The position numbers and the translations under genes were made by a program. The notes beneath the pieces were generated by a model that was given only the letters and a program-made list of their open reading frames with translations, did not search any database and was not told the DNA's origin. A stretch of DNA of 64,000 bases, from the NCBI GenBank assembly GCA_021815445.1, contig JAKAGM010000002.1, forward strand, positions 95,511 through 159,510, read 5' to 3'. This document shows positions 1,604 through 61,481 of the stretch, one piece after another (positions within the stretch are counted from its first letter, which is position 1; each line of letters opens with the position of its first letter). This DNA is from a bacterium. GTDB lineage: Bacteria > Patescibacteriota > Patescibacteriia > UBA10025.

Positions 1604-1942
1604 GTTCTGAGACTGTTTACAGGAATGTAAAGGTAATGTGTTTGTGAAGAGCGTATCTTCTGTGAATACGGTTAAATACTCACGCTCTATTAGTACTCCT
1701 CCGCTTCACTCCTTACGGAGCTTCCACGTAGAGCCTATCAACCCAATAATCTCTTGGGGAGCTTACTGAAATGTAATCTTGAAGGAGGTTTCACGCTTAT
1801 ATGCTTTCAGCGTTTATCCTTGCCGAACGTCGCTACCGAGCAATGCCCCTGGTGGGACAACTCGTCGACGAGAGGTTCGTTCTTCCCGGTCCTCTCGTAC
1901 TAGGGAAGAGTCTTCTCACATTTCTACGCCCGCGACAGATAG

Positions 1943-1994
<52 letters not shown>

Positions 1995-2007
1995 TGGCGA
2001 ACAGCCA

Positions 2008-2038
<31 letters not shown>

Positions 2039-2225
2039 CGATGGGCCGACATCGAGGTGCCAAACCCCCTCGTCGATGTGGACTCTTGGAGGGGATCAGC
2101 CTGTTATCCCCGGAGTAGCTTTTATCCGATGAGCTTCCGCCGTCCTATTTCGTGGACATACTACCTGCTATCCCTTTTGCAAGGAACAACAAGTAATACG
2201 CCGCGTACGGTCGGATCACTAAGTT

Positions 2226-2256
<31 letters not shown>

Positions 2257-2852
2257 TGCAGTAAAGCTGGCTTGTGGCTTTGCCCTATCTCTCGCATTTC
2301 CATCGCGAGATAGCCAACCTTTGTAAACGCCTCCGTTACATTTTGGGAGGCGACCGCCCCAGTCAAACTACCCACCAGACACTGTCCGTTCCCCGGATTC
2401 ACGGGTGAACGTTAGTCATAAAACCATCTCAGCGTGGTATTCCATATTGCGACTCCACCCCATCCAAAGACAGGGTTTCATAGTCTCCCACGTATGCTCG
2501 GCAGAGAAAACTCTATGACAATGCCAAGTTGTAGTAAAGCTTCACGGGGTCTTTTCGTCTAGCCGCGGGTAACGAGCATCTTCACTCGTCTTGCAATTTC
2601 GCCGAGTCCCTCGTTGAGAGAGTTTTCAAGTCGTTATGCCATTCGTGCAGGTCGTAACTTACACGACAAGGAATTTCGCTACCTTAGGACGGTTATAGTT
2701 ACCGCCGGCGTTCGTCAGCGCTTCAGCTCGGAGCTTGCACCCCTCACCTTAACGTTCTGACACTGGCCAGGCATCAGCCCCTATACATCACCTTTCGGTT
2801 TAGCAGGGACCTGTGTTTTTGATAAACAGTCGCTTGAAATCGTTTGCTGTGT

Positions 2853-3156
2853 CCAGCACCACTTTCAGTTGCCAAGCGAATGTTGTATACGTCGATACAA
2901 TTCTTGCTTAGCTCTGCCATGTTGTTTCAATCTACGTTCCCGAAGTATGGCGTCTTGTTTATTGCCATACTGTTCGCAATAGACAAGCTGCCACGCGCCT
3001 GATTGACGGTTCGTTGACGTTTGATTGCCGCTGTTATGTTCCTGCAATCGTCGGTCAAGATTGTGTGTCAGGCCTATATATAACTCCTTACTTACTGAGT
3101 GTCTAATGACGTAGATGTTCCACATAGTATTTGCTCCTTAAACTGAAAGTGGTGCT
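2853..3156 (-). mobile_element. Insertion within 23S (helix 63 variable region): 18-bp inverted repeat stem enclosing a GIY-YIG ORF
   Basis: ccagcaccactttcagtt (2853-2870) and aactgaaagtggtgctgg (3139-3156) are perfect inverted repeats. Flanking sequence aligns to E. coli 23S about 1690 and about 1770, so the insert replaces a variable helix. Confidence 0.55.
2865..3125 (-). CDS. stand-alone GIY-YIG nuclease domain protein (86 aa, YhbQ/Slx1-URI-like) encoded inside 23S insertion
   Basis: N-terminus YVIRHSVSKELYIGLTHNLDRRLQEHNSG matches the GIY-(x10)-YIG...R...E...N signature. The ORF exactly fills the loop of the 18-bp stem. Confidence 0.6.
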   Translation of the reverse strand: MWNIYVIRHSVSKELYIGLTHNLDRRLQEHNSGNQTSTNRQSGAWQLVYCEQYGNKQDAILRERRLKQHGRAKQELYRRIQHSLGN

Positions 3157-4385
3157 GGAGGGCCATGTACCGAAGGTACGGCCGTTGTTTTGCCGAGTTC
3201 CTAAACGAGGGTTCTCTCGTACACCTTAGGCTTCTCGCCTCACCCACCTGTGTCGGTTTCCGGTACGGGTACTACACTGATAATGTCTTCAATCTTTTTC
3301 TAGGCACCACATTTTCGCAAATTGGTATTGCCTTGCGACGCCACCTTTTGCCATCCCCAGCTTTCGCTGAAAACAGCAACGCGCATAACCAGAACACGCC
3401 CGCAATAGCTTGATGCGTCAGAAAGAAGACTCAATGCAGTAGTGCTGGAATATTAACCAGCTGTCCATCGGCTACGCATGTTAAGCCTCACCTTAGGACC
3501 GACTAACCCTGGGTCGATTTGCGTTGCCCAGGAAACCTTGGGTTTTCGGTGGACGGGGTTCTCACCCGTCTTTTTGCTACTTATGCCAACATTCTCACTT
3601 CGAAGCGCTCCACCGCCTCTTGTCGAGACGACTTCATGGCACTTCGAACGCTCCTCTACCACTATCTCGATTCCGAAGAACCGAGATAATTCCCACGATC
3701 GGTACGAAACTTAGCCCCGGTACATTTTTGGTGCACAGAAGCTTGACTAGTGAGCTGTTACGCTTTCTTTAAAGGATGGCTGCTTCTAAGCCAACCTCCT
3801 AGTTGTCAGGACTTCTACACTGCCTTTTACACTTAGTTTCGATTTAGGGACCTTACGTTGGGATCTGGGCTGTTTCCCTTTTGACCGGTGAAGCTTTGAC
3901 CCCACGGTCTGACTCCCCAGATAGTCTGCATCGGCATTCGGAGTTTGGTTTAGTAAAGTAGGCTTACGCCATCTTCACCAATTCAGTGCTCTACCACCGA
4001 TGCGTAGTTACTGGAGGCTAGCCCTCAAGCTATTTCGAGGAGAACCAGCTATCGCCGAGCTCGATTGGAATTTCTCCGCTATCCACGGGTCATCCCCGCG
4101 TGTTGTACGGCGCGTGGGTTCGGACCTCCCCCGCCTTTTACGGCGGGTTCATCCTGCCCATGGATAGGTCGCACGGCTTCGGGTCTTGTCGACAGAATCA
4201 AGGCGCGCTATTAACGCTCGCTTTCACTGTGGCTATTCCCTTCTCGGGCTTCACCAAACTCTGTCGAACAAACTCGTTGGCTCATTCTTCAATAGGCACG
4301 CCGTCACCCGGCTTGCGCCGAGCTCCGACTCCTTGTAAGTATATGGTTTCAGATACTTTTCATCCCCCTCACCGGGGTGCTTTTT

Positions 4386-4416
<31 letters not shown>

Positions 4417-5317
4417 ATCACAAAACGTATTTAGCCTTGGGACGATAGTCGTCCCTGCTTCCCATAAAATTTCACGTGTTTCATGGTACTCGAGAGAAAT
4501 CATCGTAGCTCCCAATCCGTTTCGCTTACGGGACTGTCACCCTCTGTGGTAGAGCTTTCCAGCTCCTTCTGCTACGGACTGAAGAGTGCCTTCACCACCC
4601 CAGCTTGCGCCGGGACGGATAAGGAACTCCCTCTAGGTCTGCTACCTCGAATCTACAGGATTCGAACATAATTTCCTCATCAACGCCCTCTTTCATTGGG
4701 CCTGCACCCATATCCTGCATTGCTGCAGGAAGAGAAGAGAGTTTTGGCTGTTCCCCTTTCGCTCGCCACTACTTAGGGAATGGGCCAAATCACACATTGA
4801 TACCCTGTCTTTCGACAGGAGATCAAACGTGCAATCTGACATTTGTTTCTTTTCCTCTGGCTACTAAGATGTTTCAATTCACCAGGTAGTCTTCACTGTG
4901 CCTATGAATTCAGCACAGGATGGCTGGCTCTTCGCCAGTCGGGTTTCCCCATTCGGACATCTCCGGATCAAAGGTTGGTTGCCACCTCCCCGAAGCTTAT
5001 CGCAGGCTCCTACGTCCTTCATCGTCGTTTTGTGTCAAGGCATCCACCATATACCCTTAAACGAGTATTTAACCGTAATCGCAAATGATACGGTTCTTAC
5101 TATTTGATGCTCATCACTTATGTTACCTCTACTACTACATATTCAGTTGTTAACGTTCATTCCTTGAGCAGAAGTAGAAAGATGAAACTGTTTTCATGCT
5201 TCTATTTCGGTTCTAGGGTTGGAAAGGGCACTCCTTTACCTACAGGACCCTTCGACTTCGCCCCGTGTGACTGTGGGGCTCCGCTCAGGGCAACTCGCTG
5301 ACGCTCGTTGAGTATGA

Positions 5318-7231: not shown

Positions 7232-7376
7232 CCCTCCGGGCGGGCTCCACTTTTCTTTGCTCGTCCAAAGAAAAGTGGAGAGAAAAGAAAAGACGTCGCA
7301 GCGCAAACTCGGCCGTTTGGCCTATATCATTGTTCTATCGCCGGCCTCAGGCAGTGCGCCGCGCAAGGGGAAAATT
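7232..7376 (+). repeat. Structured intergenic repeat family, copy A (about 145 nt; candidate sRNA or MITE-like element)
   Basis: Near-identical to 22456-22589 and 36803-36958. Contains 13-bp hairpin ccacttttctttg/caaagaaaagtgg and a long-range helix with compensatory changes between copies. Confidence 0.6.
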
Positions 7377-10618: not shown

Positions 10619-10924
10619 AATCTTACTACATTGGCCGTCTGTGTGTCGTATCGTCTGTACCGTAACATGAAATTGTAACCCACAAGCCGCCAGCTGCTGA
10701 CAATGCAACTCACCATTACTTGGCGTCGGACAGTTTGCGGCACGTCGCCGGGAGCCCTCCCGGTTGAGAGGTCCCTCCGACACTTATGTCCCCTTGTTTC
10801 TCAAGGTCCAGGCACGGTGCTGGAGGGTTTTTTTGTTAAAAAGAAAGGGGTATGACGGGGTAAGAGGGGGCCATAAGAGCAGGTGATTGATTTTTTTGCT
10901 ACCCAAGAGTATTGTGGATACGCT

Positions 10925-19265: not shown

Positions 19266-19266
19266 A

Positions 19267-19338
19267 TGCCCTCGACAGGAATCGAACCTGTATCCCAGGC
19301 TTCGGAGGCCTGTGCACTATCCTTTGTGCTACGAGGAC
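19267..19338 (-). tRNA. tRNA-Arg (anticodon CCG)
   Basis: Manual cloverleaf fold: acceptor GTCCTCG/CGAGGGC, D stem GCAC/GTGC, anticodon stem CAGGC/GCCTG with loop CTCCGAA, T arm ACAGG-TTCGATT-CCTGT; no encoded CCA. Confidence 0.75.
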
Positions 19339-19595
19339 ATGCTAGATGGGTTGTCTACATACTGTCTAATAAATTCCTTCTTTACGGAGGAACTGCGCTT
19401 AATCTGATACTCTCGCCATCGTGCCTTTTCCCGTGTTGGATACTCTTCGAATCCAATCAGTTTCCATGGAACTTTCCGTTGTGTTGTCTGGACGTGCCCT
19501 TCATTGTGCCGGACTAACCTTGCCCGAATATTTCCCGTCTGCCCAATGTAGAAAGTGTTATCTTTCTGACTCTGAAGTAGGTATACGTAGTACAT
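19329..19595 (-). CDS. stand-alone GIY-YIG nuclease domain protein (88 aa) overlapping the 5' end of tRNA-Arg
   Basis: YYVYLLQSQKDNTFYIGQTGNIRARLVRHNEG = GIY-YIG signature; stop codon TAG lies inside the tRNA acceptor/D region (GTCCTCGTAGCAC). Confidence 0.65.
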   Translation of the reverse strand: MYYVYLLQSQKDNTFYIGQTGNIRARLVRHNEGHVQTTQRKVPWKLIGFEEYPTREKARWREYQIKRSSSVKKEFIRQYVDNPSSMSS

Positions 19596-19603
19596 AAACT
19601 TTC

Positions 19604-19679
19604 GGCTTCGGCCTCCGGCCCAGAGGGCCGTACGGCCCGGAGGGAGGCCTGTGCACTATCCTTTGTGCTACGAGGACAG
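19604..19679 (-). repeat. Partial duplicate of tRNA-Arg 5' half (positions 1 to about 43) interrupted by a 33-nt GC-rich palindromic insert in the anticodon loop
   Basis: 35-nt exact repeat of 19305-19339 (ggaggcctgtgcactatcctttgtgctacgaggaca) plus ggcttc beyond a 33-nt insert containing the perfect palindrome GGGCCGTACGGCCC. Confidence 0.6.
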
Positions 19680-22455: not shown

Positions 22456-22589
22456 CCCTCCGGGCGGGCTCCACTTTTCTTTGCTCGTCCAAAGAAAAGT
22501 GGAGAGAAAAGAAAAGACGTCGCAGCGCAAACTCACCCTGCACCATCAGATGGTGCAGGGCTCAAACATGCGCAGCGCGAGGGGGAATT
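22456..22589 (+). repeat. Structured intergenic repeat family, copy B
   Basis: First about 80 nt identical to copy A; middle hairpin replaced by ccctgcacca-tcaga-tggtgcaggg; 3' conserved block gcgcagcgcgagggg. Confidence 0.6.
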
Positions 22590-22673
22590 CTAGAAATTTA
22601 CAAGCTTGCCGCTTAAGAAATGCCAAACGACTGCCGGGAAGATACAGAGCGGTGGGCCGTTGAAATTTTTCAA

Positions 22674-23057
22674 TTACATAAAACGCCTCTGGGATATTTC
22701 GCCGAGTTCCAATTTTACGGCTTGACGGTAGAAGTACACATAGAGAGCGAGTACCACCACGCTGACGCCAAAGGTGAATAAGCTCGTGAGGAACGCAAGA
22801 ATAGTGTAGACCCCGAGGTACCATTGTGCCCATGAACGGACTCGAAACACGCCGATGCAGTTAACGAGGCCGATGACGATCTGGAGGCCGAGAGAAACAA
22901 CATAAACGACGGTTGAGAAGGTGCTTTTGCCAAAATCACTCACTACCTGCATGAAGTTTAGTACTCCAAAAACGACGCTCAGGATCACCCAGAGCAATAA
23001 GACAAACCAAATCAAGAGGAGGACGGGTTGCTGTTTGAGGGTGGAAAAAGTATCCAT
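22674..23057 (-). CDS. hypothetical integral membrane protein
   Basis: Three to four predicted TM helices; start chosen at MDTFST downstream of the candidate promoter. Confidence 0.45.
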   Translation of the reverse strand: MDTFSTLKQQPVLLLIWFVLLLWVILSVVFGVLNFMQVVSDFGKSTFSTVVYVVSLGLQIVIGLVNCIGVFRVRSWAQWYLGVYTILAFLTSLFTFGVSVVVLALYVYFYRQAVKLELGEISQRRFM

Positions 23058-23087
23058 CTTGATTTCTGGAAGTAAGTGCATGCATTA

Positions 23088-23116
23088 TAGCATTTTTTTC
23101 AGGAAAAAGCAACATA
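23088..23116 (-). promoter_or_regulatory. candidate sigma-70 promoter (TTGCTT-17-TATAAT)
   Basis: Minus strand: ttgctt tttcctgaaaaaaatgc tataat about 25 nt upstream of ATG. Confidence 0.4.
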
Positions 23117-23152
23117 TATAGTAATAACTGCAACTCCTTCAAGTATTATTAT

Positions 23153-23258
23153 CTCCCCAAGTCGGGCTAAAGGAGAGAGTCATCGGGTAATATCGCAAAA
23201 GCGAAACTGCCTGATGTATTTAGCCCGGCTTGTGGAGACAAATCCCTTTTTCACATCA
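23153..23258 (-). repeat. Structured about 105-nt element, copy 1 (paralog of 26430-26537)
   Basis: Minus strand: GAAAAAGGGATTTGTCTCC...CCGACTTGGGGAG with closing helix TCTCC/GGAGA, CAAG/CTTG and inner stem GCCGGGCTA/TAGCCCG. Copy 2 has the inner stem replaced by GCCGGACCAG/CTGGTCCG (covariation). Confidence 0.55.
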
Positions 23259-23272
23259 TCAAATAGTTCGAT

Positions 23273-23316
23273 GGGGTGGAAAAGAGAGAGGAGGCCTTGG
23301 TTGTGCGAACCAAGGC
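23273..23316 (-). terminator. Terminator-like hairpin with conserved loop GTTCGCACAA followed by CCTCTCTCTTTTCC (family member i)
   Basis: Minus strand ccttgg-ttcgcacaa-ccaagg then pyrimidine/T tract; immediately 3' of the radical-SAM gene. Confidence 0.5.
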
Positions 23317-23373
23317 TTTTTATCCGGCATGCGCCAGATAATGGGCCCTCCTCTGATTGACCTGGAAAAAGAA

Positions 23374-24615
23374 CTACTCAATCACCCTTTCCCAACCGTC
23401 CGGAAGAGAAAGCAGGTGATTCGTTGCATAGAATCGTAGGTCGCCCAAGGTCGGAGCAAGGCGATGGTTATTGAACAGTACAGAAGTTTGAAACTCCGTA
23501 CCCACCGTCATGGCCACATCCTCCGTGGCCACCTCCTCTGCCGGGAGCTGGACGAAATATCCATCCGCAGTCTCCCGGACACCGAGGGGATGAAAGCCCA
23601 GCCAGCGAAGATATTTGCCGATTTTTTCAGGATCGGCTTTCCCCCACTGGCCGAGCTCGTCTGTGCGCGGTCGGTTGTTCCGGTTGTACGGGACGGGCAT
23701 ACCAAATTCGTCTCGATACAAAGTGCCAGTGTGGCGATGCACACGGACACCACATTCCGCCGCGGTGGCCAGAATTGCCCTCTCAACCTCGGGAGCGAGC
23801 CAGTTTTTCATCCGGTAGTACGAATGCCCTGCCGGGTGTGCTTTCTCGTCTTGGCCGCCGTCGAGAAAACCTAACCTGCGAAGCTGGTCGTCTTCGGGCG
23901 CCACGCCGAAGTTTCCAACCGAACAGCCCCGATAGGTCAAGAACTGAATCCCGAGCTCGGCGAGCTCACGGATCAGCCGAACCCCCGCTTCGATGTTATT
24001 CGAGTTGAGAGGACCAAGCATCACCGAGATCCGACCGGCGGGGATACCAGCAGAGAACACCCGTTTTAGGCCAGCCATTTGCGCGGGCGGCTTAACGGGA
24101 CTCCCTTCGAACTCGGGGCAGGAGGGGGTAATCGTCGTGCAGAAAATCGCGCGGCGATCCGGCCCCCACTCCTTTATTTGGCGCCAGCCGAACGGCGCCC
24201 GGTGCAGGATAAACACTGGATTTCCATGCGGAAAAATCCGCAGGAACTCGGTGATCTCCGGCACCTGCATGGAGCCGTCGCTCCGGGCGCAGAGCATGAC
24301 GATGTCACGCTCCGGCTTGAACAGGCGACTCTGGTCCAGCCATTGGATCATCTCCTCCGGGGTGCAAATCCGGCGCAAGCCCTTCTGCCCTGTGCCGATG
24401 GTATCAACAGAATTGTTGATCCACCGGTAGTAGCAGAAGGAGCACCCGATCGTGCATCCCATAACGAGATCACCGTCCCAGGTGTAACGCCGCTTGTAAA
24501 ACGGTGCCGGGGCTACCGGGACGCTCTTCCAGCCGGGCGGCGTGCCACCAAGCAGAAGGTGTTCTCCATTAACAATTGCCGCATCTCGGGCGGCGGAAAG
24601 TTCATCAAAACCCAT
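23374..24615 (-). CDS. radical SAM enzyme (CxxxCxFC cluster motif; SplB/COG1533-like or ThiH/MqnC-like)
   Basis: GCTIGCSFCYY = C-x3-C-x2-C with aromatic residues, about 60 aa from N-terminus; 413 aa; high-GC codon usage. Confidence 0.65.
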   Translation of the reverse strand: MGFDELSAARDAAIVNGEHLLLGGTPPGWKSVPVAPAPFYKRRYTWDGDLVMGCTIGCSFCYYRWINNSVDTIGTGQKGLRRICTPEEMIQWLDQSRLFKPERDIVMLCARSDGSMQVPEITEFLRIFPHGNPVFILHRAPFGWRQIKEWGPDRRAIFCTTITPSCPEFEGSPVKPPAQMAGLKRVFSAGIPAGRISVMLGPLNSNNIEAGVRLIRELAELGIQFLTYRGCSVGNFGVAPEDDQLRRLGFLDGGQDEKAHPAGHSYYRMKNWLAPEVERAILATAAECGVRVHRHTGTLYRDEFGMPVPYNRNNRPRTDELGQWGKADPEKIGKYLRWLGFHPLGVRETADGYFVQLPAEEVATEDVAMTVGTEFQTSVLFNNHRLAPTLGDLRFYATNHLLSLPDGWERVIE

Positions 24616-25346
24616 TATACCTCCTTCCGCCCTAAAATGGGGGCGATTTTGGTCTTAAGTTCACGGCCTCGGCGAATTGCCTCTTCAGCGGATACGCCAT
24701 ACGCTCGCATGTAAGTCAGCCGGTCGAGTTTCTCGTCAGAGTTCTCGACACGGCCATCCTTGCCATGCAGAGCAGAAAGGCCGTCATCCAACATCTGGGC
24801 GGCTATGCCGTCCAGCCGTGCCGCCTCGCAAACTTGAGGCGGACAGCCAAGTGCCGCGGCAATAAACAGCCGAAAGGCGCTTTCTTTTTGCACTACACGC
24901 CACCAAGTTATTGTCGGCTCGAGTAGCGCATAGCCGGGATTTTCCAGCTCAACCTCCAAACGCGCGCCCTCAATTACCTCACGCAAGCGCTGTTCAAAGA
25001 GGAGTAGGATTTCCAACCGTGCGGCGATCTGGCGGGCTTGGGCAATATCCCATGCCGCCTGCTCAATCGCCGCCGCTCCGCTCCGAGTGAACCAGAAAGC
25101 CGGTGATCCGTCACGGACGGTATCCTCGTCAATGAGGTCGTCCATGACTTTAAACGCCCGGCGCAGGTGCTCCACCTGGCTGCACAAGAGGTCAACCTCT
25201 GTGGCAGTACGCGTGCCAAGCCGAGCCAAAGCCCGAACTTTTTTCGCATAACTGCCGGAGGTGACAACTTTTTCTATAAATCGCGGCGTCTGGAAACTAC
25301 GCTGATAAAACTGTTCCAGTGCCGCGAGTTTTTCACGCCAGTTCAT
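24615..25346 (-). CDS. isoprenyl diphosphate synthase-like protein (class I terpenoid synthase fold; short, divergent second Asp motif)
   Basis: VMDDLIDEDTVRDGSPA matches first aspartate-rich motif DDxxD-x4-RRG-xP of trans-prenyltransferases; stop overlaps start of radical-SAM gene. Confidence 0.5.
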   Translation of the reverse strand: MNWREKLAALEQFYQRSFQTPRFIEKVVTSGSYAKKVRALARLGTRTATEVDLLCSQVEHLRRAFKVMDDLIDEDTVRDGSPAFWFTRSGAAAIEQAAWDIAQARQIAARLEILLLFEQRLREVIEGARLEVELENPGYALLEPTITWWRVVQKESAFRLFIAAALGCPPQVCEAARLDGIAAQMLDDGLSALHGKDGRVENSDEKLDRLTYMRAYGVSAEEAIRRGRELKTKIAPILGRKEV

Positions 25347-26394
25347 CGAGCACCTCCGTTTGGAAGCCTATCGATTCACTGATGTACCGACACTGCCCAC
25401 TAACCATCTCCCGCGTCTGCTCCAGCGAACTGGAAACAAACAGCCAGGAGAAAAGCTCGTGAATGCCGGCGATGAAGTCCATACCGAAGTTAACTCGGCA
25501 TGTATGAGCCAGTCCGTCATAAACAACGCTGTTACCCGTGGTTTTCACCACAAAGTCAGCGAAGTCCATGACATCTAGGGCGCCCATGTCGCGCAGCAGC
25601 TCCTGTCGCCTGGCATCTTGCCAGTCATCAAAGTCGCCGCGCTTAAGACATTCCGCCTGTCGTTCGGTTTCATCCCTCTCCACCCGAACGACAATCGCGG
25701 GTCGGCGAGTGGCGTAGGAAGCATAAATGATTTGCTCCCGCCGCTTGATCCCGTCAACCACAGCAAATGTGGCCGGGTCCTGGCGGATTCCTGATTGCTC
25801 AAGAAACCGCCGTGCCACCGCTATCCGGTCCCTCGACTCCACCTCATTGGTGAATCGCTGAACCAGACTCCAGCTGTTTTCCGAAGTCATCGAGCCAAAA
25901 TTCGACTCGATTATCCCCTGGGCATACTCTCCCCACTTATAGCAAGAGAAATACGGAAGACTAGAAAATATCTTCCGCAACATCGTCTTGCCGCTGGCAG
26001 GGAGCCCCACCAGGCACACCATATACTTATTCAAAGTATATGGCTCACTGGGGAGATCGGGACGAGTTTTTGTAAACAACCCCTCCCTTCCCAGTAAATA
26101 GTGCTGGTGAAGATACGCCAATCGTGTCATGGTATTTCCGGCGTAATGAACCGGCCCCTCGACCCCCATGCCCTGCAACGCCAGCTCAACTTTGCGTTGA
26201 GTGAGCGCCGTGGTGACATTTTGGTCAAGGATCACAATCTCGTCGTACCGACGCCGGTGCGGGAGATTCCAAAACTCCACTCCGCGCTGGTCCAACCGCG
26301 AATGGTCGCTGATGACCACCTCCCACTCGCGTGGAAGAAGGTCAAGCAGTGCCACTCCTGATTTGGCTATAAGAATAGCCAAAATATTTTTCAC
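25333..26394 (-). CDS. two-domain P-loop kinase (N-terminal unknown domain plus polynucleotide-kinase/AAA_33-like kinase domain)
   Basis: Walker A CLVGLPASGKT; probable GTG start (VKNILAIL) 6 nt after AAAGGAGG; overlaps next gene by 14 nt. Confidence 0.55.
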   Translation of the reverse strand: MKNILAILIAKSGVALLDLLPREWEVVISDHSRLDQRGVEFWNLPHRRRYDEIVILDQNVTTALTQRKVELALQGMGVEGPVHYAGNTMTRLAYLHQHYLLGREGLFTKTRPDLPSEPYTLNKYMVCLVGLPASGKTMLRKIFSSLPYFSCYKWGEYAQGIIESNFGSMTSENSWSLVQRFTNEVESRDRIAVARRFLEQSGIRQDPATFAVVDGIKRREQIIYASYATRRPAIVVRVERDETERQAECLKRGDFDDWQDARRQELLRDMGALDVMDFADFVVKTTGNSVVYDGLAHTCRVNFGMDFIAGIHELFSWLFVSSSLEQTREMVSGQCRYISESIGFQTEVLDELA

Positions 26395-26429
26395 GCATTC
26401 CTCCTTTTTGCTTTTTGTCTTTGTCTTTT

Positions 26430-26537
26430 CTCTCCCCAAGTCGGACCAGTGGAGAGAGTGCTTCGTCTGACATTTAGTAATATCAGAAGAAGCGTCTGGT
26501 CCGGCTTTGGAAGACAAATCCCTTTTTCAACAATAAA
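26430..26537 (-). repeat. Structured about 105-nt element, copy 2 (immediately upstream of kinase gene RBS)
   Basis: See 23153-23258. Confidence 0.55.
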
Positions 26538-26587
26538 TAAACATGTGGGTAGTCGAGGCTTTTATGCCTTGGCAGTTATTTAATGTT

Positions 26588-26636
26588 AGAAAAGAGAGGG
26601 AAGCCGCCGCGATTGTGCGAACCACAGCGGCTTCCC
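26588..26636 (-). terminator. Hairpin family member ii (loop GTTCGCACAA, tail CCTCTCTTTTCT)
   Basis: Minus strand ggaagccgctgtg-gttcgcacaa-tcgcggcggcttcc. Confidence 0.5.
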
Positions 26637-26657
26637 GGAAAGTGCAGTCAAGTAGAC

Positions 26658-27002
26658 TTACGCCTCCTTGACCTCCGCGGCGGAGATCACATCTCCGACC
26701 GCGTAGTCACCACCGTGCGAGGAGGCGACGATGTAGGCCACCATCTTCGGATCGAAGACGGCGACCATTCCGAACCGGTGGACCAAGTGATGCGTCAGCA
26801 CCGCAACCACCGGCAGGGTGGCGGGCCCGTTGACCAGCGCCAGCTGGCCACCGAGCTCGCCCGCTTCGAGCTCGACCATCCGGGACTCCGCGTCCTGGAC
26901 GATCGCATTGTTCTTGGCCGGGTCGCCAAACCCGACCGTGAACAATGTAACAGGTTTCCCTGCGACGGAAACCTGTGATGTTTCAATCTTGTAAGTCGCC
27001 AT
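26658..27002 (-). CDS. hypothetical protein (114 aa)
   Basis: Start MATYKIETSQ after GAAGGGAGGG RBS; no motif assigned. Confidence 0.45.
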   Translation of the reverse strand: MATYKIETSQVSVAGKPVTLFTVGFGDPAKNNAIVQDAESRMVELEAGELGGQLALVNGPATLPVVAVLTHHLVHRFGMVAVFDPKMVAYIVASSHGGDYAVGDVISAAEVKEA

Positions 27003-27138
27003 TTTCCCTCCCTTCGAGAGGTAGCCCTTCTCACCAGCCAAAGCATGGCTACTTTAGCAAGGGCGGCCTTATTTTTCAGGCCTGGTTTGAATTTGAACCA
27101 ACCGCACCGGTGAGGCACGCGGTCAGTATGTTATTTAT

Positions 27139-27726
27139 TTACTTTTTTTCCTCGAGAGCAACTTGTTCCACGAGGAATTGGGCGAGTGCGGCCACGCATG
27201 GCCGCTGAGAAACATCCTCACCTCTTTCGAGGTAGTGAACGCTCCCCTTAAAGACTCCATCCTCGCCTACGCCTTGGACGGAGTCCTCCTGACCGTGGTA
27301 GTCCGAGAAAATCTCGGCTACCACTTTTATCCCAAGCTCTGTGCAAAACGCGCGCCACTCGGAAACCCGGCTCAAGTCGCCCGCCAGAATGACGGCGTGA
27401 GTCGCGGCGGCGCAAATCTTTTTATTCTCTGCACTGGGAATACCGCCAATATCCACCAGCGTCATGGGGAGTGTGCAGCTGGCGACCGAGTCGGCCACCC
27501 TCTCCACAAACAGTGGCGTGAACTTGGTCTTATAGGCCGCCTTGCACGCCGCCGCCAAGGCAGGATCTGCCTCAACGGTCTCCTGGAACCATGCGCCCTC
27601 CCCATCCGGACACGCGGTGATCACATATGGATACGGCGATCCAGGAATGCGCCGCACCGCCCGCTTGAGTCCTTCCCTCAAACAGGATTTGCCGGACCGT
27701 GGTGGTCCGCAGAGCACGATTTTCAT
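27139..27726 (-). CDS. small P-loop NTPase (195 aa; CobU/MobB-like architecture)
   Basis: Walker A LCGPPRSGKS at residues 6-15; Walker B-like hhhD (TLVDIGG). Confidence 0.5.
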   Translation of the reverse strand: MKIVLCGPPRSGKSCLREGLKRAVRRIPGSPYPYVITACPDGEGAWFQETVEADPALAAACKAAYKTKFTPLFVERVADSVASCTLPMTLVDIGGIPSAENKKICAAATHAVILAGDLSRVSEWRAFCTELGIKVVAEIFSDYHGQEDSVQGVGEDGVFKGSVHYLERGEDVSQRPCVAALAQFLVEQVALEEKK

Positions 27727-27799
27727 CGCCACTCCTTTCCTGCTTGGGAACGCCCAAGCTTGTTTTCTCCGCATCCAACTCACAAACCATTTGCGAGCT

Positions 27800-27848
27800 G
27801 GAAAAGAGAGGGAAGGTTCATAAGTTGTGCAAACTTATCATCCTTCCC
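27800..27848 (-). terminator. Hairpin family member iii (loop GTTTGCACAA, tail CCTCTCTTTTCC)
   Basis: Minus strand ggaaggatgataag-tttgcacaa-cttatgaaccttcc. Confidence 0.5.
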
Positions 27849-27995
27849 TTAAGTGCAAGCATTATGGGCTCAGACCACCCTTATAAGATGCCGGCCATCC
27901 GGACATCCACTTAAGGTAGCTTTCCCATTCAGGCATCTGCCAATGCCGCCCGATATTTCCCTCGATGCCAGGTTTTAGGGGAGAAGTCAGCAGTC

Positions 27996-28421
27996 CTAGG
28001 ACTGCTGAAAAATCTTGATCTCCACCCGCATGTATGTGACATACACGCGAAACTGACGAAATTTTTCCGCCAGTTTGGAGGCAAGATCTTCCACCATCAG
28101 CTTCCACTCCTCGTCGGATTCGCCCGAATACAATGGGCTTTTGTCCGCGAAGAGGGTCAGCGACGGCTCATCCTCGGCGTGCACGCCACCTTTACTCGGG
28201 TAAGCGTACACCAGCACCGTCTCCTGAATCCCGACCGGAATGTAATTCCGTCCGGCTTTAAGAGCGGCCCGGTATTCCTCCTTAAGAAAAGCGACTACCG
28301 CCGCCTTCTCTTGGAGAAATCCTTCGTAGCCCTGCTTCAGGCCAAGATTGATCTCGGCCCGCAGGGTGGAGGATGCCTCTCCTTTACGATCGCCCTCTTG
28401 GGCAATCGCATACTTTGCCAT
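27996..28421 (-). CDS. hypothetical protein (141 aa)
   Basis: GGAAGGAGG RBS; no motif assigned. Confidence 0.45.
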   Translation of the reverse strand: MAKYAIAQEGDRKGEASSTLRAEINLGLKQGYEGFLQEKAAVVAFLKEEYRAALKAGRNYIPVGIQETVLVYAYPSKGGVHAEDEPSLTLFADKSPLYSGESDEEWKLMVEDLASKLAEKFRQFRVYVTYMRVEIKIFQQS

Positions 28422-28527
28422 AATTTCACCTCCTTCCGGCTGGTTTATGGCTCGACCGTCGCACCGCGTCGTCCGGTTTGTGGGTATTTTCCACTTTCAG
28501 CTAGCAAATTATTTCTACGGGCTGAAA

Positions 28528-28566
28528 AAAACTAGGAACCGACGAAAAGCAAAACTGCCGGTTCCC
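28528..28566 (-). terminator. intrinsic terminator after exonuclease gene
   Basis: Minus strand ggaaccg-gcagttttgcttttcgt-cggttcc followed by tagttttttt. Confidence 0.5.
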
Positions 28567-28573
28567 AAAAAAG

Positions 28574-29128
28574 CTACATTTGTCCGAGTTGCTTGAGCGC
28601 TTTGATCGCGCACAAGCCGCTCACCCACGCATCATAGCGCGGGTCATGCTTCCGGCGCTGATCCGCTGGAATGTTTACCCAGTCCTCACCGTGAATCTGG
28701 TGAGGGACCAGGCCGCACGCCAGCTGTAAGCTGGCGCAGTCTATTAGCGGGAACGGGCCTTTGAACTCCCGTTCCTTGAAGTCATCCCGCTGGCAAGCCA
28801 GCAGGAAACCCGCTTCAACTGGATAGCCGTTGTCGGCTATCACGATCAGGCGGCCTTCCTTCTCGGCCGCCTTGTCCCTCTGGGTCTGAAGCCAAGCCCA
28901 GAAGGTGTCACGGAGTTCCCGGCCGTTGCCGAAATTCTCCGTGATCTGCATCCCTGGCAGCACGTTCTGTGCAACCCAGGGATCAACCGGGCCCTCAATC
29001 GGGCACCGGCCGACGAATTCAGAGAGCACATTGCCCTCCGAATCCATTGTAATAGCTCCCACGGCAAACGCAGCGCCGAGGAGCGAGTTGGTCTCGCAGT
29101 CAAACACAATAATGTTTTCTACCTTCAT
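28574..29128 (-). CDS. DEDD-family 3'-5' exonuclease (DnaQ/RNase T-like)
   Basis: Exo I motif IIVFDCETNSL; size and later acidic/His residues consistent with DEDDh. Confidence 0.65.
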   Translation of the reverse strand: MKVENIIVFDCETNSLLGAAFAVGAITMDSEGNVLSEFVGRCPIEGPVDPWVAQNVLPGMQITENFGNGRELRDTFWAWLQTQRDKAAEKEGRLIVIADNGYPVEAGFLLACQRDDFKEREFKGPFPLIDCASLQLACGLVPHQIHGEDWVNIPADQRRKHDPRYDAWVSGLCAIKALKQLGQM

Positions 29129-29417
29129 TACAACCTCCCTTTCCAAGTGTATGTCTTGTGATTAGAATCATTTCACCAACTGCAACCCCCACCTTAGTTA
29201 CAAGATGAGGGAGCGCACTTGGTGCTAGTGATCGCCGTCTCGTTACATCGCCTCGAAAAAAATCGAAGCTTTTAGATTCCTGATAGCGGCTAGCGAAGTT
29301 GATGCGAACTCACCGGACCATCTCTCTCCAAACCAACTGTTCCGGTCAGGTGATCTCGCATACATACCTATAAAGAACAAATGAAAGAACGATACTGCAA
29401 AAGAACAAACTCCTTCT

Positions 29418-29565
29418 CTCCGAAAGAGCGTAGAGAAGAGACAGATGCGACCTTTCAATTGAATATGATTATGAGGTCGTCTGCTTCTCTCTCCTCTCTA
29501 CGCGCTTTAGGTGATACCAATAAAAAGGGACTCTGCTCGTTAACTGCGAGAGAGTCCCTTTTATT
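29418..29565. repeat. Long imperfect inverted repeat (about 30-bp arms) plus adjacent perfect 12-bp palindrome aaaagggactct/agagtccctttt in an 850-nt AT-rich intergenic region
   Basis: gagcgtagagaagagacagatgcgacct ... aggtcgtctgcttctctctcctctctacgcgct; palindrome 29523-29565. Confidence 0.4.
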
Positions 29566-29992
29566 GATCCAAGGTCATATCGTGAATAATTACTATAGCT
29601 CTTCGGCAGTTTTCACCGCCGCGTTCACCGTTCCCACTGTTTGAGCGGGGGAAGGTGCTCTCTCCATGCCCGCCCCGATTGCTATGAAGGGCGGCGCATA
29701 TCATTGATTCAATTTTCAAAGTTCGCTCGCTTCTCAGGTAACCATTTCTAGCGTAACGAGAGATTATATACCTAAAACAGAAACATGTCAATGCTTTTCG
29801 TCAAAAAATTACCAATATTATCAAAGTATAATGACTCCAACTATATTTTTATATGTCTGCTAAACTATGTTTGTCACTTTACGTTGACAAAGCTTACTAC
29901 CTATGATATACTTGATGTGGAAACAGATGTTTTGAGACGATCCAGAAAGTACAAGTGATAAATAGGTTATCCACAGGGTATAGACAATAAAA

Positions 29993-30760
29993 ATGGCGGA
30001 AAAAACGTCGGTAACAATAAAGACACTTGCCCAAGTAGGTCTCTCAGAAAAGGAGGCAACGATTTACGAGGCGCTCCTTCAGCTTGGTAAAGCTGGCATG
30101 GGTCAGCTCCTTGCCCGTGTCCCCTACAAACGAGGCAACGCCTATGACCTTGTTTACGAGCTTATGAGAAAAGGGCTTATTTCCGAAACGGAGGAACGGG
30201 GAAAAAAGGTATTTGCCATTGAGCCGCCGTCAGCATTAAAGGTACTCCTTGAAAACAGAGAGCAAGAGCTGAGACGCCAGCAGCAAACCTTGAGCGCAAG
30301 TCTCGATCAATTGCAATCAGCCTATCGATTGGCAATGAATAAGCCCGGCGTCAGATACTACGAAGGAAAAGAAGGGATAATAAAAATCTACGAGGAACTG
30401 CTCGAGAATAACCAGCCAATAGATAGCATTGAGGAAAAAGGCGATCTCCTTACCTACATTCCCGACTATGCGCCTCAGTACGTGAAAAAGCGCGTACAAA
30501 AAAAACTTTTTAATCGTGTCATTTCTCCAGATACCAACACACTCAACAAAACTGATAAAAACAAATTCATCGAGGCGCACCGCCTACCAGCCGATCAGTT
30601 TCCTTTCCGTATGGACATCAAAATCAGTGGAAACAAAATTTCCCTGATCACGTTCCAAAAAGAAAATGCCGTCGGCGTGCTGATGGATAATCCGGAGATT
30701 GCCGATAACTTCAAAATACTTTTTGAGTTTCTCTGGAGAAAAACAGCACCGTCAACCTAA
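29993..30760 (+). CDS. TrmB-family transcriptional regulator
   Basis: N-terminal winged HTH (LSEKEATIYEALLQLGKAGMGQL) plus C-terminal domain, about 255 aa. Confidence 0.65.
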   Translation: MAEKTSVTIKTLAQVGLSEKEATIYEALLQLGKAGMGQLLARVPYKRGNAYDLVYELMRKGLISETEERGKKVFAIEPPSALKVLLENREQELRRQQQTLSASLDQLQSAYRLAMNKPGVRYYEGKEGIIKIYEELLENNQPIDSIEEKGDLLTYIPDYAPQYVKKRVQKKLFNRVISPDTNTLNKTDKNKFIEAHRLPADQFPFRMDIKISGNKISLITFQKENAVGVLMDNPEIADNFKILFEFLWRKTAPST

Positions 30761-36802: not shown

Positions 36803-36958
36803 CCCTCCGGGGTGGGCTCCACTTTTCTTTGCTTGTCCAAAGAAAAGTGGAGAGAAAAGAAAGGACAGCACGGCGCAAACTCGGCCGTTTGGAAAATATC
36901 TCCCTTTTTTCGCCGGCCTCAGACAGTGCGCCGTGCGAGGGAAAAATCCTTTTCTGGC
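36803..36958 (+). repeat. Structured intergenic repeat family, copy C
   Basis: Aligns to copy A over 150 nt with compensatory substitutions (gtcgcagcgc/gcgccgcgc vs agcacggcgc/gcgccgtgc). Confidence 0.6.
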
Positions 36959-59895: not shown

Positions 59896-60165
59896 CTTGT
59901 CCGGAATTTGATTTTTGCTGCGATAGGCATATACTTACTTTAGTTAAGTACTTTGACTATCCGGGAGGGGGTTCACGGCCCTCTTAGTTGGTGAAGCGAG
60001 CGTTTAAAGGCTCTTTGTCCACGGTGACACCTCCAGCATTTTTGTTCGGATGGGGAACTTTAAGCGGCTCAGCGCAGGAATCACGGATGATTCCTGCGCT
60101 TTTTCTTATGGACCTTGACTGATTTTATCTACGTGGTATCATCTATCTATTACTTTTTCTTATAA

Positions 60166-60320
60166 GGAGCGGAGCGAGGGAATTGGCCCAAAGACCTCCC
60201 GGCAGCCTGTCCCACAAGGGATGTACGGTGCCACGTCCAACCTCTTCATCGGCAAGGGGAAGATAAGAAGAATGCAGAGTCTTCTTATCAACGATAAGAA
60301 TTCTTTTATATATTATTAAC
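60166..60320 (+). promoter_or_regulatory. SAM-I (S-box) riboswitch with terminator/antiterminator expression platform controlling metK
   Basis: TTCTTATAAGGAGCGGAGCGAGGGAATTGGCCCAAAGACCTCCCGGCAGCC ... GGTGCC ... GAAGATAAGAAG matches S-box consensus. Antiterminator GATAAGAAGA/TCTTCTTATC competes with P1 and with terminator TCTTATC-aac-GATAAGA then TTCTTTT. Confidence 0.75.
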
Positions 60321-60335
60321 GCATCAAGCACGACA

Positions 60336-61481
60336 ATGAGAAAGCACATATTTACCTCGGAATCAGTCACCGAAGGACATCCCGATAAAGTCTGTGACCA
60401 GATATCGGATGCCATCTATGACGCGATGCTTAAGCAGGATCCTAAGGCCCACGCGGGCATAGAATGTTTTGCCACGACCGGTTTAGTGATGGTAGGCGGA
60501 GAAGCCCGGACAAGGGCGTATGTCGATATCCAGGAGATTGTTCGAAATACATTAAAACGCATCGGCTATGACAAGCCTGAATATGGATTTTGTTATAAAG
60601 ACATCGGAGTTATCAGCACGCTCCACGAGCAATCGCCCGATATCGCCCAGGGCGTCGACGGTACGGGAGAATCCAAAGAGCAGGGTGCCGGCGACCAGGG
60701 TTTGATGTTCGGCTTTGCGTGCGACGAGACGCCTGAGCTCATGCCGCTCCCTATTTCTCTCGCCCACAAGCTTGCGAAGAGATTATCGGAGGTGCGGAAA
60801 GACGGAACGCTCGCATACCTGCGTCCTGACGGAAAGTCCCAAGTCAGCATTGAATATGTGGATGGGAAGCCGACGAGAGTCATGGCCGTCGTCATTGCCG
60901 CGCACCATTCCGAAAATGTCGAAATGAAAAAACTGAGAGCTGACATCACTAAGCATGTGATACAGCCCGTGCTTGGCAAATTGCTTACCGATGAGACGAA
61001 GATGTTCATCAACTCTACCGGCAAGTTCGTTATCGGCGGCCCGCCCGCAGACGCCGGTCTCACCGGGCGAAAAATAATCGTAGATACCTACGGCGGTTCA
61101 GCGCCCCATGGAGGCGGATGTTTCTCGGGGAAATGCGTCACCAAGGTTGATCGAAGCGCGGCATACGCCGCTCGGTACATGGCGAAACATGTGGTTGCCG
61201 CAGGACTCGCGAAGAAATGTCTTATCCAGCTCGCGTATTCTATCGGAGTTGCAAAGCCTGTCTCCATCATGGTGGACACCTATGGTACCGGTGTGAAGTC
61301 TGACGAGGAAATCGAACAGCTCGTCGAGAAGCATTTCCCGGTGAAGCCCGCTGACATCATTCGTGTTCTTGATCTCGAGCATCCCATCTATGAAAAAACA
61401 GCCGCATACGGGCACTTCGGCAGGACCGATGTAGAGTTCCCGTGGGAAAAGTTGGATAAAGTTGATTTGCTGAAGGGCTAA
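60336..61481 (+). CDS. metK: S-adenosylmethionine synthetase
   Basis: [36 protein letters not shown] signatures. Confidence 0.95.

Follow-up and report, generated by a model that had tools for sequence, protein, structure and literature searches.

Long hairpins in a patescibacterial gene island as parts of intergenic modules descended from hammerhead ribozymes

What are the two similar structured elements that border a three-gene cassette in a bacterium of the Patescibacteriota (lineage UBA10025)? The question arises from a stretch of 64,000 nucleotides (contig JAKAGM010000002.1 of assembly GCA_021815445.1, forward-strand positions 95,511 to 159,510), hereafter the window, in which an initial annotation had reported two paralogous minus-strand copies of an element of ~105 nt closed by a covarying long-range helix. 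On re-reading, the positions of both copies and the sequences quoted for them were correct. We designate them E1 (copy 1, 23149-23254) and E2 (copy 2, 26427-26530); these elements, their modules and the island genes given with coordinates lie on the minus strand. The module to which E1 and E2 belong descends from units made of a hairpin and a type III hammerhead ribozyme by loss of the catalytic core, and the pairing in its added long hairpin has been kept by selection. We give a probability of about 0.45 to the fuller reading, that a repeated intergenic module, derived from the hammerhead, has E1 and E2 as its 3' domain and now marks cistron boundaries by means of its hairpins. This estimate rests mostly on the descent and little on the mechanism, which we infer.

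Sequence and fold of the two hairpins

The long hairpin of E1 (23149..23241) consists of an outer helix, UUGUCUCC/GGAGAUAA and CAAG/CUUG, a 1x1 C.A mismatch, an inner stem CGGGCUAAA/UUUAGCCCG, a variable inner hairpin and an internal loop ACUCUCUCC on the 3' side. In E2 (26427..26518) the outer helix is formed by UUU/AAA, UCUUCC/GGGAGA and AAG/CUU, followed by the C.A mismatch, the stem CGGACCAG/CUGGUCCG, an inner hairpin and the loop ACUCUCUCCA. Each hairpin is preceded by a conserved 5' block, GUGAAAAAGGGA in E1 (23243..23254) and UUGAAAAAGGGA in E2 (26519..26530), whose AAAAGGGA is the predicted partner of the tail UCUCUUUU of an upstream hairpin (T1 and T2, respectively). The blocks TGAAAAAGGGATTTGTCT, AAGCCGG, ACTCTCTCC, and CCGACTTGGGGAGA are identical in both copies. 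TGAAAAAGGGATTTGTCT, searched as a 17-mer, has two exact matches in the 64 kb (0.26 expected by chance with up to three mismatches allowed), as has the 14-mer CCGACTTGGGGAGA (0.47 with two mismatches allowed). The window holds two E copies, both inside the island, in agreement with the proposal of a structured module duplicated there.

Structure prediction, suggested earlier as a check, folded both copies into long hairpins, with energies of -41.6 kcal/mol for E1 and -42.7 kcal/mol for E2 (z = -4.4 and -5.8 against dinucleotide shuffles). Of 22 pairs (95.5% paired), four were changed on both sides between E1 and E2, three of them in the inner stem (G-C>A-U, U-A>C-G, A-U>G-C) and one at the base of the inner hairpin (A-U>U-A); one further pair went from C-G to U.G. 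Sliding the 3' partners by 1-3 columns left no both-sided changes, and the covarying long-range helix was thereby upheld. The outer helix, described as conserved, is present in both copies but is not identical, since an A x G mismatch is shifted by one position in E2. The inner hairpins are wholly different in sequence and length, as had been noted.

Comparison of the region with Rfam 15 yielded no family at gathering score. At E<=10, the region and each module alone matched only generic microRNA-precursor hairpins (best <=24 bits) and no riboswitch, leader or ribozyme class (twister, pistol, hatchet, HDV, hammerhead). The E hairpin does not have the form of an intrinsic terminator: it lacks an immediate U-tract and is followed by UAAUAAUAC, GAAAAGACA or CCCUGAUC. 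Three other candidates were rejected. Pseudoknot pairing of the 5' block with the CUCUCU loop, possible over 6 bp in E1, was dropped because it is conserved neither in E2 nor in a third member, E3, described below. Reading the conserved blocks as promoters on either strand (sigma-70, extracytoplasmic-function-like and sigma-54 spacings were considered by eye) found no counterpart with the scan tool. As for a coding role of E2, the frame of the downstream kinase-like gene is open through it, yet homologues start at a GVK/MSN codon linked to a Shine-Dalgarno (SD) sequence.

E1 and E2 form the 3' part of a module of ~190-230 nt, in which a hairpin with a GGTTCGCACAA apex is followed by a UCUCUUUU x AAAAGGGA helix enclosing a variable hairpin and then by the long E hairpin. 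Folds of 246 and 266 nt around the copies gave the same three adjacent helical domains (z = -8.2 and -8.7), the second being a predicted 8-bp helix between the tail UCUCUUUU and AAAAGGGA. In module 1, the hairpin T1 (23280..23316; GCCUUGGUU-CGCAC-AACCAAGGC, apex GGTTCGCACAA) has a CUCC linker and the tail UCUCUUUU, and the inner hairpin (23257..23278) is built of CAC/GUG and CAUCGAA/UUUGAUG. In module 2, T2 (26590..26636) is a 17-bp hairpin, GGGAAGCCGCUGUGGUU-CGCAC-AAUCGCGGCGGCUUCCC, with the tail UCUCUUUU; it is the only hairpin here that the scan tool called terminator-like, and the middle domain of this module (26528..26588) is an AU-rich stem around CUGCCAAGGCAUAAAAGCCUCGAC. Module 3 (27766..27848) begins with a third GTTTGCACAA-apex hairpin, T3 (27810-27848; GGGAAGG..GUUUGCACAAC..CCUUCCC, apex GTTTGCACAAC), which has the same tail as the other modules (CCCTCTCTTTTCC); a UCUCU/GGAGA helix enclosing a 13-bp hairpin comes next, and the long E hairpin is missing. 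This architecture corrects the initial annotation in two respects. The E elements do not come directly after the GTTCGCACAA hairpins, E1 starting 41 nt and E2 69 nt past them, and the 5' block, taken for single-stranded, has a predicted partner in the U-rich tail of the upstream hairpin.

Hammerhead ribozymes at the same gene junctions

The radical-SAM-like protein encoded between E2 and E1 has 64 homologues, and 45 loci around them were fetched by contig look-ups and two protein-guided scans. The cassette was found in metagenome-assembled genomes (MAGs) labelled Minisyncoccales, Saccharibacteria, Pacearchaeota, Thermoplasmata, Deltaproteobacteria and Smithella, and also in Fervidicola. At many loci (L004, L006, L009-L011, L016, L039, L042) its borders carry type III hammerhead motifs. 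Twelve distinct copies combine a complete core with three covarying stems: of 16 pairs, 97.9% paired, 13 were changed on both sides, and CUGAUGAG, CGAAA and the U16.1-A15.1 pair were invariant. The hammerhead call rests on our own analysis because the viroid-trained Rfam model RF00008 matched these copies only partially (16.5 bits, below the gathering score).

The modules of the window occupy the same places. Among the loci with both junctions, L010 has the radical-SAM protein closest to that of the window (82% identity). At its first junction, the AAA-Csx3 gene is followed by a hairpin GGGAAG..CTTCCC, UCUGUU|C and a hammerhead. Then come a 250-aa gene, a decayed module, a Fic-like gene and the kinase, synthase-like and radical-SAM genes. 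At its second junction, a hairpin GAGAGG..CCTCTC, ACUCUUU|C and a hammerhead precede a small membrane-protein gene. T2 with E2 and T1 with E1 are situated exactly at these two hammerhead junctions. In L009, too, hammerheads lie directly upstream of the kinase gene and directly downstream of the radical-SAM gene.

A regular-expression scan of both strands of the window found no CUGAYGA..GAAA with a stem II and no intact hammerhead. None of the three window modules has CUGAUGA or a stem II; in place of the C3-A9 core, module 1 has UUGAUGA without stem II and module 2 has CUGCCAA, and stem III encloses one hairpin only. What has been preserved is GAAA with stem III, in which the A15.1-U16.1 pair and a U-H cleavage site can be recognized. 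In modules 1 and 2, UCUCUUUU-C forms 8 predicted bp with GAAAAAGGGA, and in module 3 UCUCU is matched with GGAGA; we read this as a hammerhead remnant. A catalytic hammerhead needs its three stems together with the C3-A9 core and G12-A14; since the core and stem II are gone from the window modules, cleavage by the hammerhead mechanism is impossible in them.

Further parts of the modules can be aligned with those of intact units. The segment UUGAUGA-UGU-GAAAAAGGGA of module 1 looks like a remnant of CUGAUGA, stem II, GAAA and the 3' strand of stem III in succession, and CUGCCAAGGCAUAAAAGCCUCGAC of module 2 may be read, likewise by sequence resemblance, as a remnant of CUGAUGA-GGC AAAA GCC-CGAAAC. 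Module 2 retains CUGccaAGGCauaaaaGCCuCGA, the counterpart of which in the L009 hammerhead is CUGAUGAGGCAAAAGCCCGAAA. The hairpin base and tail, GGGAAG...CTTCCC-TCTCTTTTC (GGGAAG...CTTCCC-TCT), are alignable between the window and L010. The 5' block of E1 aligns with GAAA and the 3' strand of stem III of the related hammerheads; compare UGAAAAAGGGAG of L018, a locus with the same decayed form, which ends in UGAAAAAGGGAG-UAGUUCUUUG. The E hairpin itself starts with UUUGUC, which matches the conserved post-ribozyme motif of related loci (GUUCUUUG; UUCUUUGUC / GUUCUUUGA). Decayed modules were also present in L010 (3840-3925), L013, L018 and L047.

Two observations on the related loci stand apart from the window modules. 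The segment preceding the hammerhead (GGGUAAAAA...; L009 683-740, 1740-1800 and 4905-4950, L011 5100-5150) contains interleaved complementary stretches, such as AGAGU..GGAAAG..ACUCU..CUUUCC, which change together between copies and suggest a pseudoknot upstream of the ribozyme. In L004/L012 (2458-3260), L006/L040 (7445-8230), L039 and L042, the hammerhead is followed by a sigma-70-type promoter, a noncoding region of ~700 nt and a kinase-like gene. This region is a large conserved RNA, 89% identical between L004 and L006, with an internal terminator-like hairpin and no Rfam match at gathering scores in either locus; the radical-SAM proteins of L004 and L006 are each ~70% identical to that of the window.

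A third member and the possible role of the hairpin

A covariance model built from E1 and E2 only was searched against 413 kb of related loci and gave one additional match, E3, at 10564-10663 of L011/L038 (10562-10667 by a slightly wider count; 32.2 bits, E = 1.8e-6). E3 lies ~65 nt past a T-type hairpin (GGGAAGG..GGTTTGCAC..CCTTCCC followed by GCUCUUUCC), where the stem-III remnant encloses a hairpin. About 50 nt after E3 there is a strong terminator and then a convergent IS66 transposase gene, with no gene beyond on the E3 strand. The L011 contig retains intact hammerheads at 5172 and 12552 alongside E3, and the L011/L038 radical-SAM protein is only 76% identical to that of the window. The helix common to the three members comprises 13 + 8 bp, or 21 pairs (93.7% paired). 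Both partners were changed in six of these pairs, against 0-1 in slid controls, and one partner in three. The 1x1 mismatch between the helix segments and the CUCUCU tract on the 3' side were kept in all three. This tract is the only conserved unpaired segment, and the inner hairpin is not conserved. The collection of homologues thus supplied one further member with the pairing maintained.

The search ended there. A second covariance model, made from the three sequences, found no more members in the related loci, and its L015 match (E = 0.6) was rejected by eye as AT-rich sequence. Searches of the 45 related loci with blastn-short and nhmmer gave nothing significant. Exact-pattern scans for E returned zero hits in collections of genomes, metagenomes and viral contigs, which do not include the source MAG, and phages and plasmids contained no blastn match to the modules. 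A 12-nt match, GAAAAAGGGATT, at L006 6648 is due to chance and is located inside an unrelated hairpin.

Maintenance of pairing also bears on the view that the modules are functionless, that is, dying hammerhead units whose hairpin persists only because the duplication was recent or because gene conversion or templated repair of quasi-palindromes maintained it. Decay of this kind would agree with the frequent decayed hammerhead modules in L010, L018, L047 and L013 and with the absence of the E hairpin from 40 other related loci. Against it stand the six both-sided changes with few broken pairs, the exact blocks of 18, 9 and 14 nt beside fully diverged segments, and the persistence of a member in a second genome, that of the 76% identical radical-SAM protein; we consider functionless decay unlikely.

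The downstream contexts of the three members differ: E2 is in the 5' untranslated region (UTR) of an operon, E1 is upstream of an independent promoter, and E3 is followed by the terminator and the convergent IS66 gene. Common to them is the upstream decayed-hammerhead module, not the downstream gene. The initial annotation had rightly placed E2 just ahead of the ribosome-binding site of the kinase-like gene (its end is ~22 nt before a strong SD) and E1 upstream of a separate promoter, with no shared 5'-UTR role. Its proposal of a riboswitch or aptamer, to which the position of E2 and the partly conserved structure of E would be suited, is unsupported because there is no expression platform and no conserved junction and because the downstream context is different in all three members. 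Neither a terminator/antiterminator nor an SD-sequestering platform follows E1 or E2. The element is a single interrupted hairpin with no multi-helix junction, its inner hairpin is not conserved, and E1 and E3 are not gene leaders. No ligand junction was recognized: the conserved unpaired nucleotides are those of CUCUCU only, and the other conserved block is predicted to be a helix strand. With no Rfam family matched either, we regard a riboswitch or ligand-sensing leader as very improbable.

A small or 3'-UTR-derived RNA, also proposed earlier in the form of an independent small RNA, is another explanation that the contexts help to judge. Here E, with or without the stem-III remnant, would be released or separately expressed and act in trans, and it could recognize targets, for example SD sequences, by pairing through its CUCUCU loop or purine-rich block. 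Such an RNA would account for the CUCUCU loop kept in three members and for the strong terminator ~50 nt after E3 with no same-strand gene beyond, and in hammerhead-bearing ancestors upstream cleavage would have freed it. However, the scan tool found no promoter upstream of E1 or E2, neither copy is followed by a terminator, and E2 continues straight into the 5' UTR of the kinase gene. The trans-acting role is decidedly unlikely.

The reading that we prefer remains that of hairpins marking cistron boundaries. E would act in cis and without catalysis, as a hairpin that governs processing or stability of the RNA within a multi-gene transcript of the Csx3/radical-SAM island. The hammerhead core (CUGAUGA) and stem II have been lost, leaving stem III (UCUCUUUU x AAAAGGGA) and one enclosed hairpin. 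The upstream T hairpin has lengthened into a GC-rich, terminator-like stem, and the sequence just 3' of the former ribozyme has become an interrupted hairpin of 21-22 bp under selection for pairing. The T hairpin might then stop transcription incompletely or protect a 3' end, and the E hairpin, of about two helical turns, might serve as a site for cleavage by a double-strand-specific (RNase III-type) enzyme or as a shield for the downstream segment. In the predicted fold, all three members offer 13 + 8 bp with one 1x1 mismatch, in keeping with the ~20 bp or more of near-continuous double-stranded RNA expected of an RNase III substrate. A role as RNase III site or stabiliser is suggested by analogy; transcription through the modules, their cleavage and any effect on expression are presumed.

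A bolder version holds that E is a newly evolved device that replaced the lost hammerhead, either as a self-cleaving motif of a new kind or as a dedicated place where a nuclease of the host or the island cuts or binds; from their sequences, Csx3 and the DEDD-type exonuclease are the island-encoded candidates. We find this distinctly improbable; if true, it would document the exchange of a ribozyme for a non-homologous processing element at the same gene junctions. The self-cleaving form, a new ribozyme or a variant succeeding the hammerhead, has in its favour that E sits at hammerhead positions, and Weinberg and colleagues reportedly found, in 2015, new ribozyme classes near known ones. E has too few conserved unpaired nucleotides for a ribozyme, it matched no known ribozyme class even at E<=10, and in L011 E3 occurs together with intact hammerheads; this possibility is extremely unlikely.

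The hairpins could also act as DNA, in the form of a selfish or recombination hairpin (a miniature palindromic insert or an attC-like junction) bordering a mobile cassette. The direct repeats of T and E flank a three-gene cassette found in many phyla, the ends of E are conserved and its centre is variable, as in attC sites, E3 adjoins an IS66 transposase gene, and E1 folds better on the antisense strand. The sequence ACAAGC-UUGGG of module 3, set against ACAAGC, 76 nt and CUUGGGG in E1, gives a hint of insertion. Nevertheless, the island proteins include no integrase or recombinase, the attC cores RYYYAAC/GTTRRRY are absent (E has CACAAG/CTTGGGG), and only two copies are present in 64 kb, both in the island. 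A dispersed palindromic repeat of the REP or MITE kind would have many copies across the genome; the count of two comes from 64 kb of a 359-kb contig. The flanking parts of the modules are homologous to RNA ribozyme units. The balance of G.U cells points the same way, as there are seven G.U cells on the sense strand against three C.A cells that would be G.U on the antisense, which favours the sense strand 7 to 3. We give a DNA-level element little credence.

Several points count against cistron marking by a selected RNA hairpin. The E family is very small; its three members come from two genomes and are related by descent, so the covariation statistics, proposed earlier as a check, are weak. 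The antisense fold of E1 is better than the sense fold (-48.3 vs -41.6 kcal/mol), whereas E2 and E3 favour the sense strand, and E3 folded by itself prefers an alternative structure. The helix between tail and 5' block shows no covariation inside the window, and the L011 tail has as its partner another block that lies closer to it. Finally, compensatory changes in a palindrome can stem from templated mutation or repair of DNA, with no selection on RNA.

Gene island, other features and known systems

The island is located between UvrB and RuvA. In minus-strand order it starts with the gene of a 997-aa protein, followed by a divergent TrmB-like regulator gene. The scan tool found a promoter of perfect consensus, TTGACA-17-TATAAT, at 29763..29791, the sole sigma-70-type promoter in the scanned 27700-30050, 26350-26750 and 22900-23450. 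This promoter and a leader are followed by a 190-aa exonuclease-like gene, whose product is read as such from a DEDD-like motif and had no database match, a 141-aa gene and hairpin T3. Upstream of T2/E2, AAA and Csx3 are encoded by two split genes (27139-27783 and 26658-27041), the equivalent of which in L010 is a single fused AAA-Csx3 gene. The three-gene cassette (23374..26394), flanked by E2 and E1, consists of a P-loop kinase-like gene (25333-26394), a polyprenyl-synthase-like gene (24615-25346) and the radical-SAM-like gene (23374-24615; CxxxCxxC). T1 and E1, then a promoter and a small membrane-protein gene, form the end of the island. No sigma-70-type promoter was found by the scan tool between T3 or T2 and the following AAA and kinase genes. 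Transcription of these genes therefore probably begins at the 29791 promoter, which we take as the likely source of a multi-gene transcript reading through the modules. All four window proteins checked were singletons at 90% identity among 15 billion sequences.

Between 29791 and 29520 (minus strand), the promoter is followed by a noncoding RNA or leader of ~240 nt and a strong terminator, AAAAGGGACUCUCUCGCAGUUAACGAGCAGAGUCCCUUUUU; the same type of terminator occurs after E3 in L011 (about 10715-10775). Another hairpin, estimated by eye at ~28 bp, is present at about 29425-29520. This region may act on the island as a whole, as its leader or attenuator.

The cassette recurs across distant phyla beside Csx3, AAA-Csx3, SAVED, Fic and exonuclease-like genes (the window and L003-L047). 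None of its three proteins matches PADLOC. The kinase-like and radical-SAM-like proteins had no Pfam match and no useful PDB sequence match, and the synthase-like protein had only a sub-threshold match to Pfam polyprenyl_synt. The radical-SAM cassette was not found in viral contigs. It may represent an undescribed defence or signalling module.

Other features were recorded in the window. A structured repeat of ~140 nt is present in three copies (7238-7375, 22462-22599 and 36810-36947), one of them just downstream of the membrane-protein gene after E1. Its hairpin CTCCACTTTTCTTTG..CAAAGAAAAGTGGAG is conserved, its second stem covaries (GGCCG/CGGCC vs CACCCTGC/GCAGGG), and it had no Rfam match at gathering scores. 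A tRNA-Arg(CCG) gene lies at 19266-19339 on the minus strand; its 5' half forms a perfect 36-nt direct repeat (19304-19339 and 19643-19678, 339 bp apart), which an integration or excision event at this gene may have left behind. The bacterial 23S rRNA gene (1669-5073) has several large insertions relative to the Rfam model, e.g., of ~50, ~63 and >100 nt in domain I. A SAM-I (S-box) riboswitch (60157-60269, 56.7 bits) precedes the open reading frame 60336-61481.

In the early mRNA of phage T7, hairpins between cistrons are processed by RNase III. Like these, E1 and E2 are paralogues whose helix makes about two turns and contains a mismatch, and they lie between cistrons of a presumed long transcript; they differ in having no sequence relation to the T7 hairpins and in the large inner hairpin and one-sided pyrimidine loop of E. 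The putL and putR sites of phage HK022 and the nut sites of lambda are paralogous cis-acting RNA elements within one operon system. The likeness here lies in two paralogous structured RNAs with covarying stems in one transcription system with several terminator-like hairpins. Unlike them, E comes after terminator-like hairpins, E1 stands at the operon end, and neither sequence nor structure matches. Integron attC sites resemble E as imperfect palindromes of ~90 nt with conserved ends and a variable centre at the ends of gene cassettes. E differs from them in lacking their cores and an integrase, in being limited to two sites and in having ribozyme-derived flanks.

The nearest relatives are the clustered type III hammerheads of bacterial mobile and prophage settings, which flank genes or short gene blocks and have been read as processing sites of long transcripts (Perreault et al. 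2011, PMC3088659). Window modules share with them the upstream hairpin, the strands of stem III, the post-ribozyme motif and the multi-gene transcript setting, and the window junctions match hammerhead modules of L009, L010 and L011. The differences are the lack of CUGAUGA and stem II and the added hairpin of 21-22 bp, which was not seen in intact modules. At the same island junctions, some genomes have intact hammerheads and others have remnants that lack the core but bear a strong T hairpin and a selected E hairpin. If the hairpins do the ribozyme's job, separating cistrons and setting RNA ends, comparison of the two states would make the role of bacterial hammerheads testable and would provide a case of how a catalytic RNA gets replaced. 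Punctuation of transcripts linked to hammerheads is known; new is a core-less derivative with an added, selected hairpin at the ribozyme junctions.

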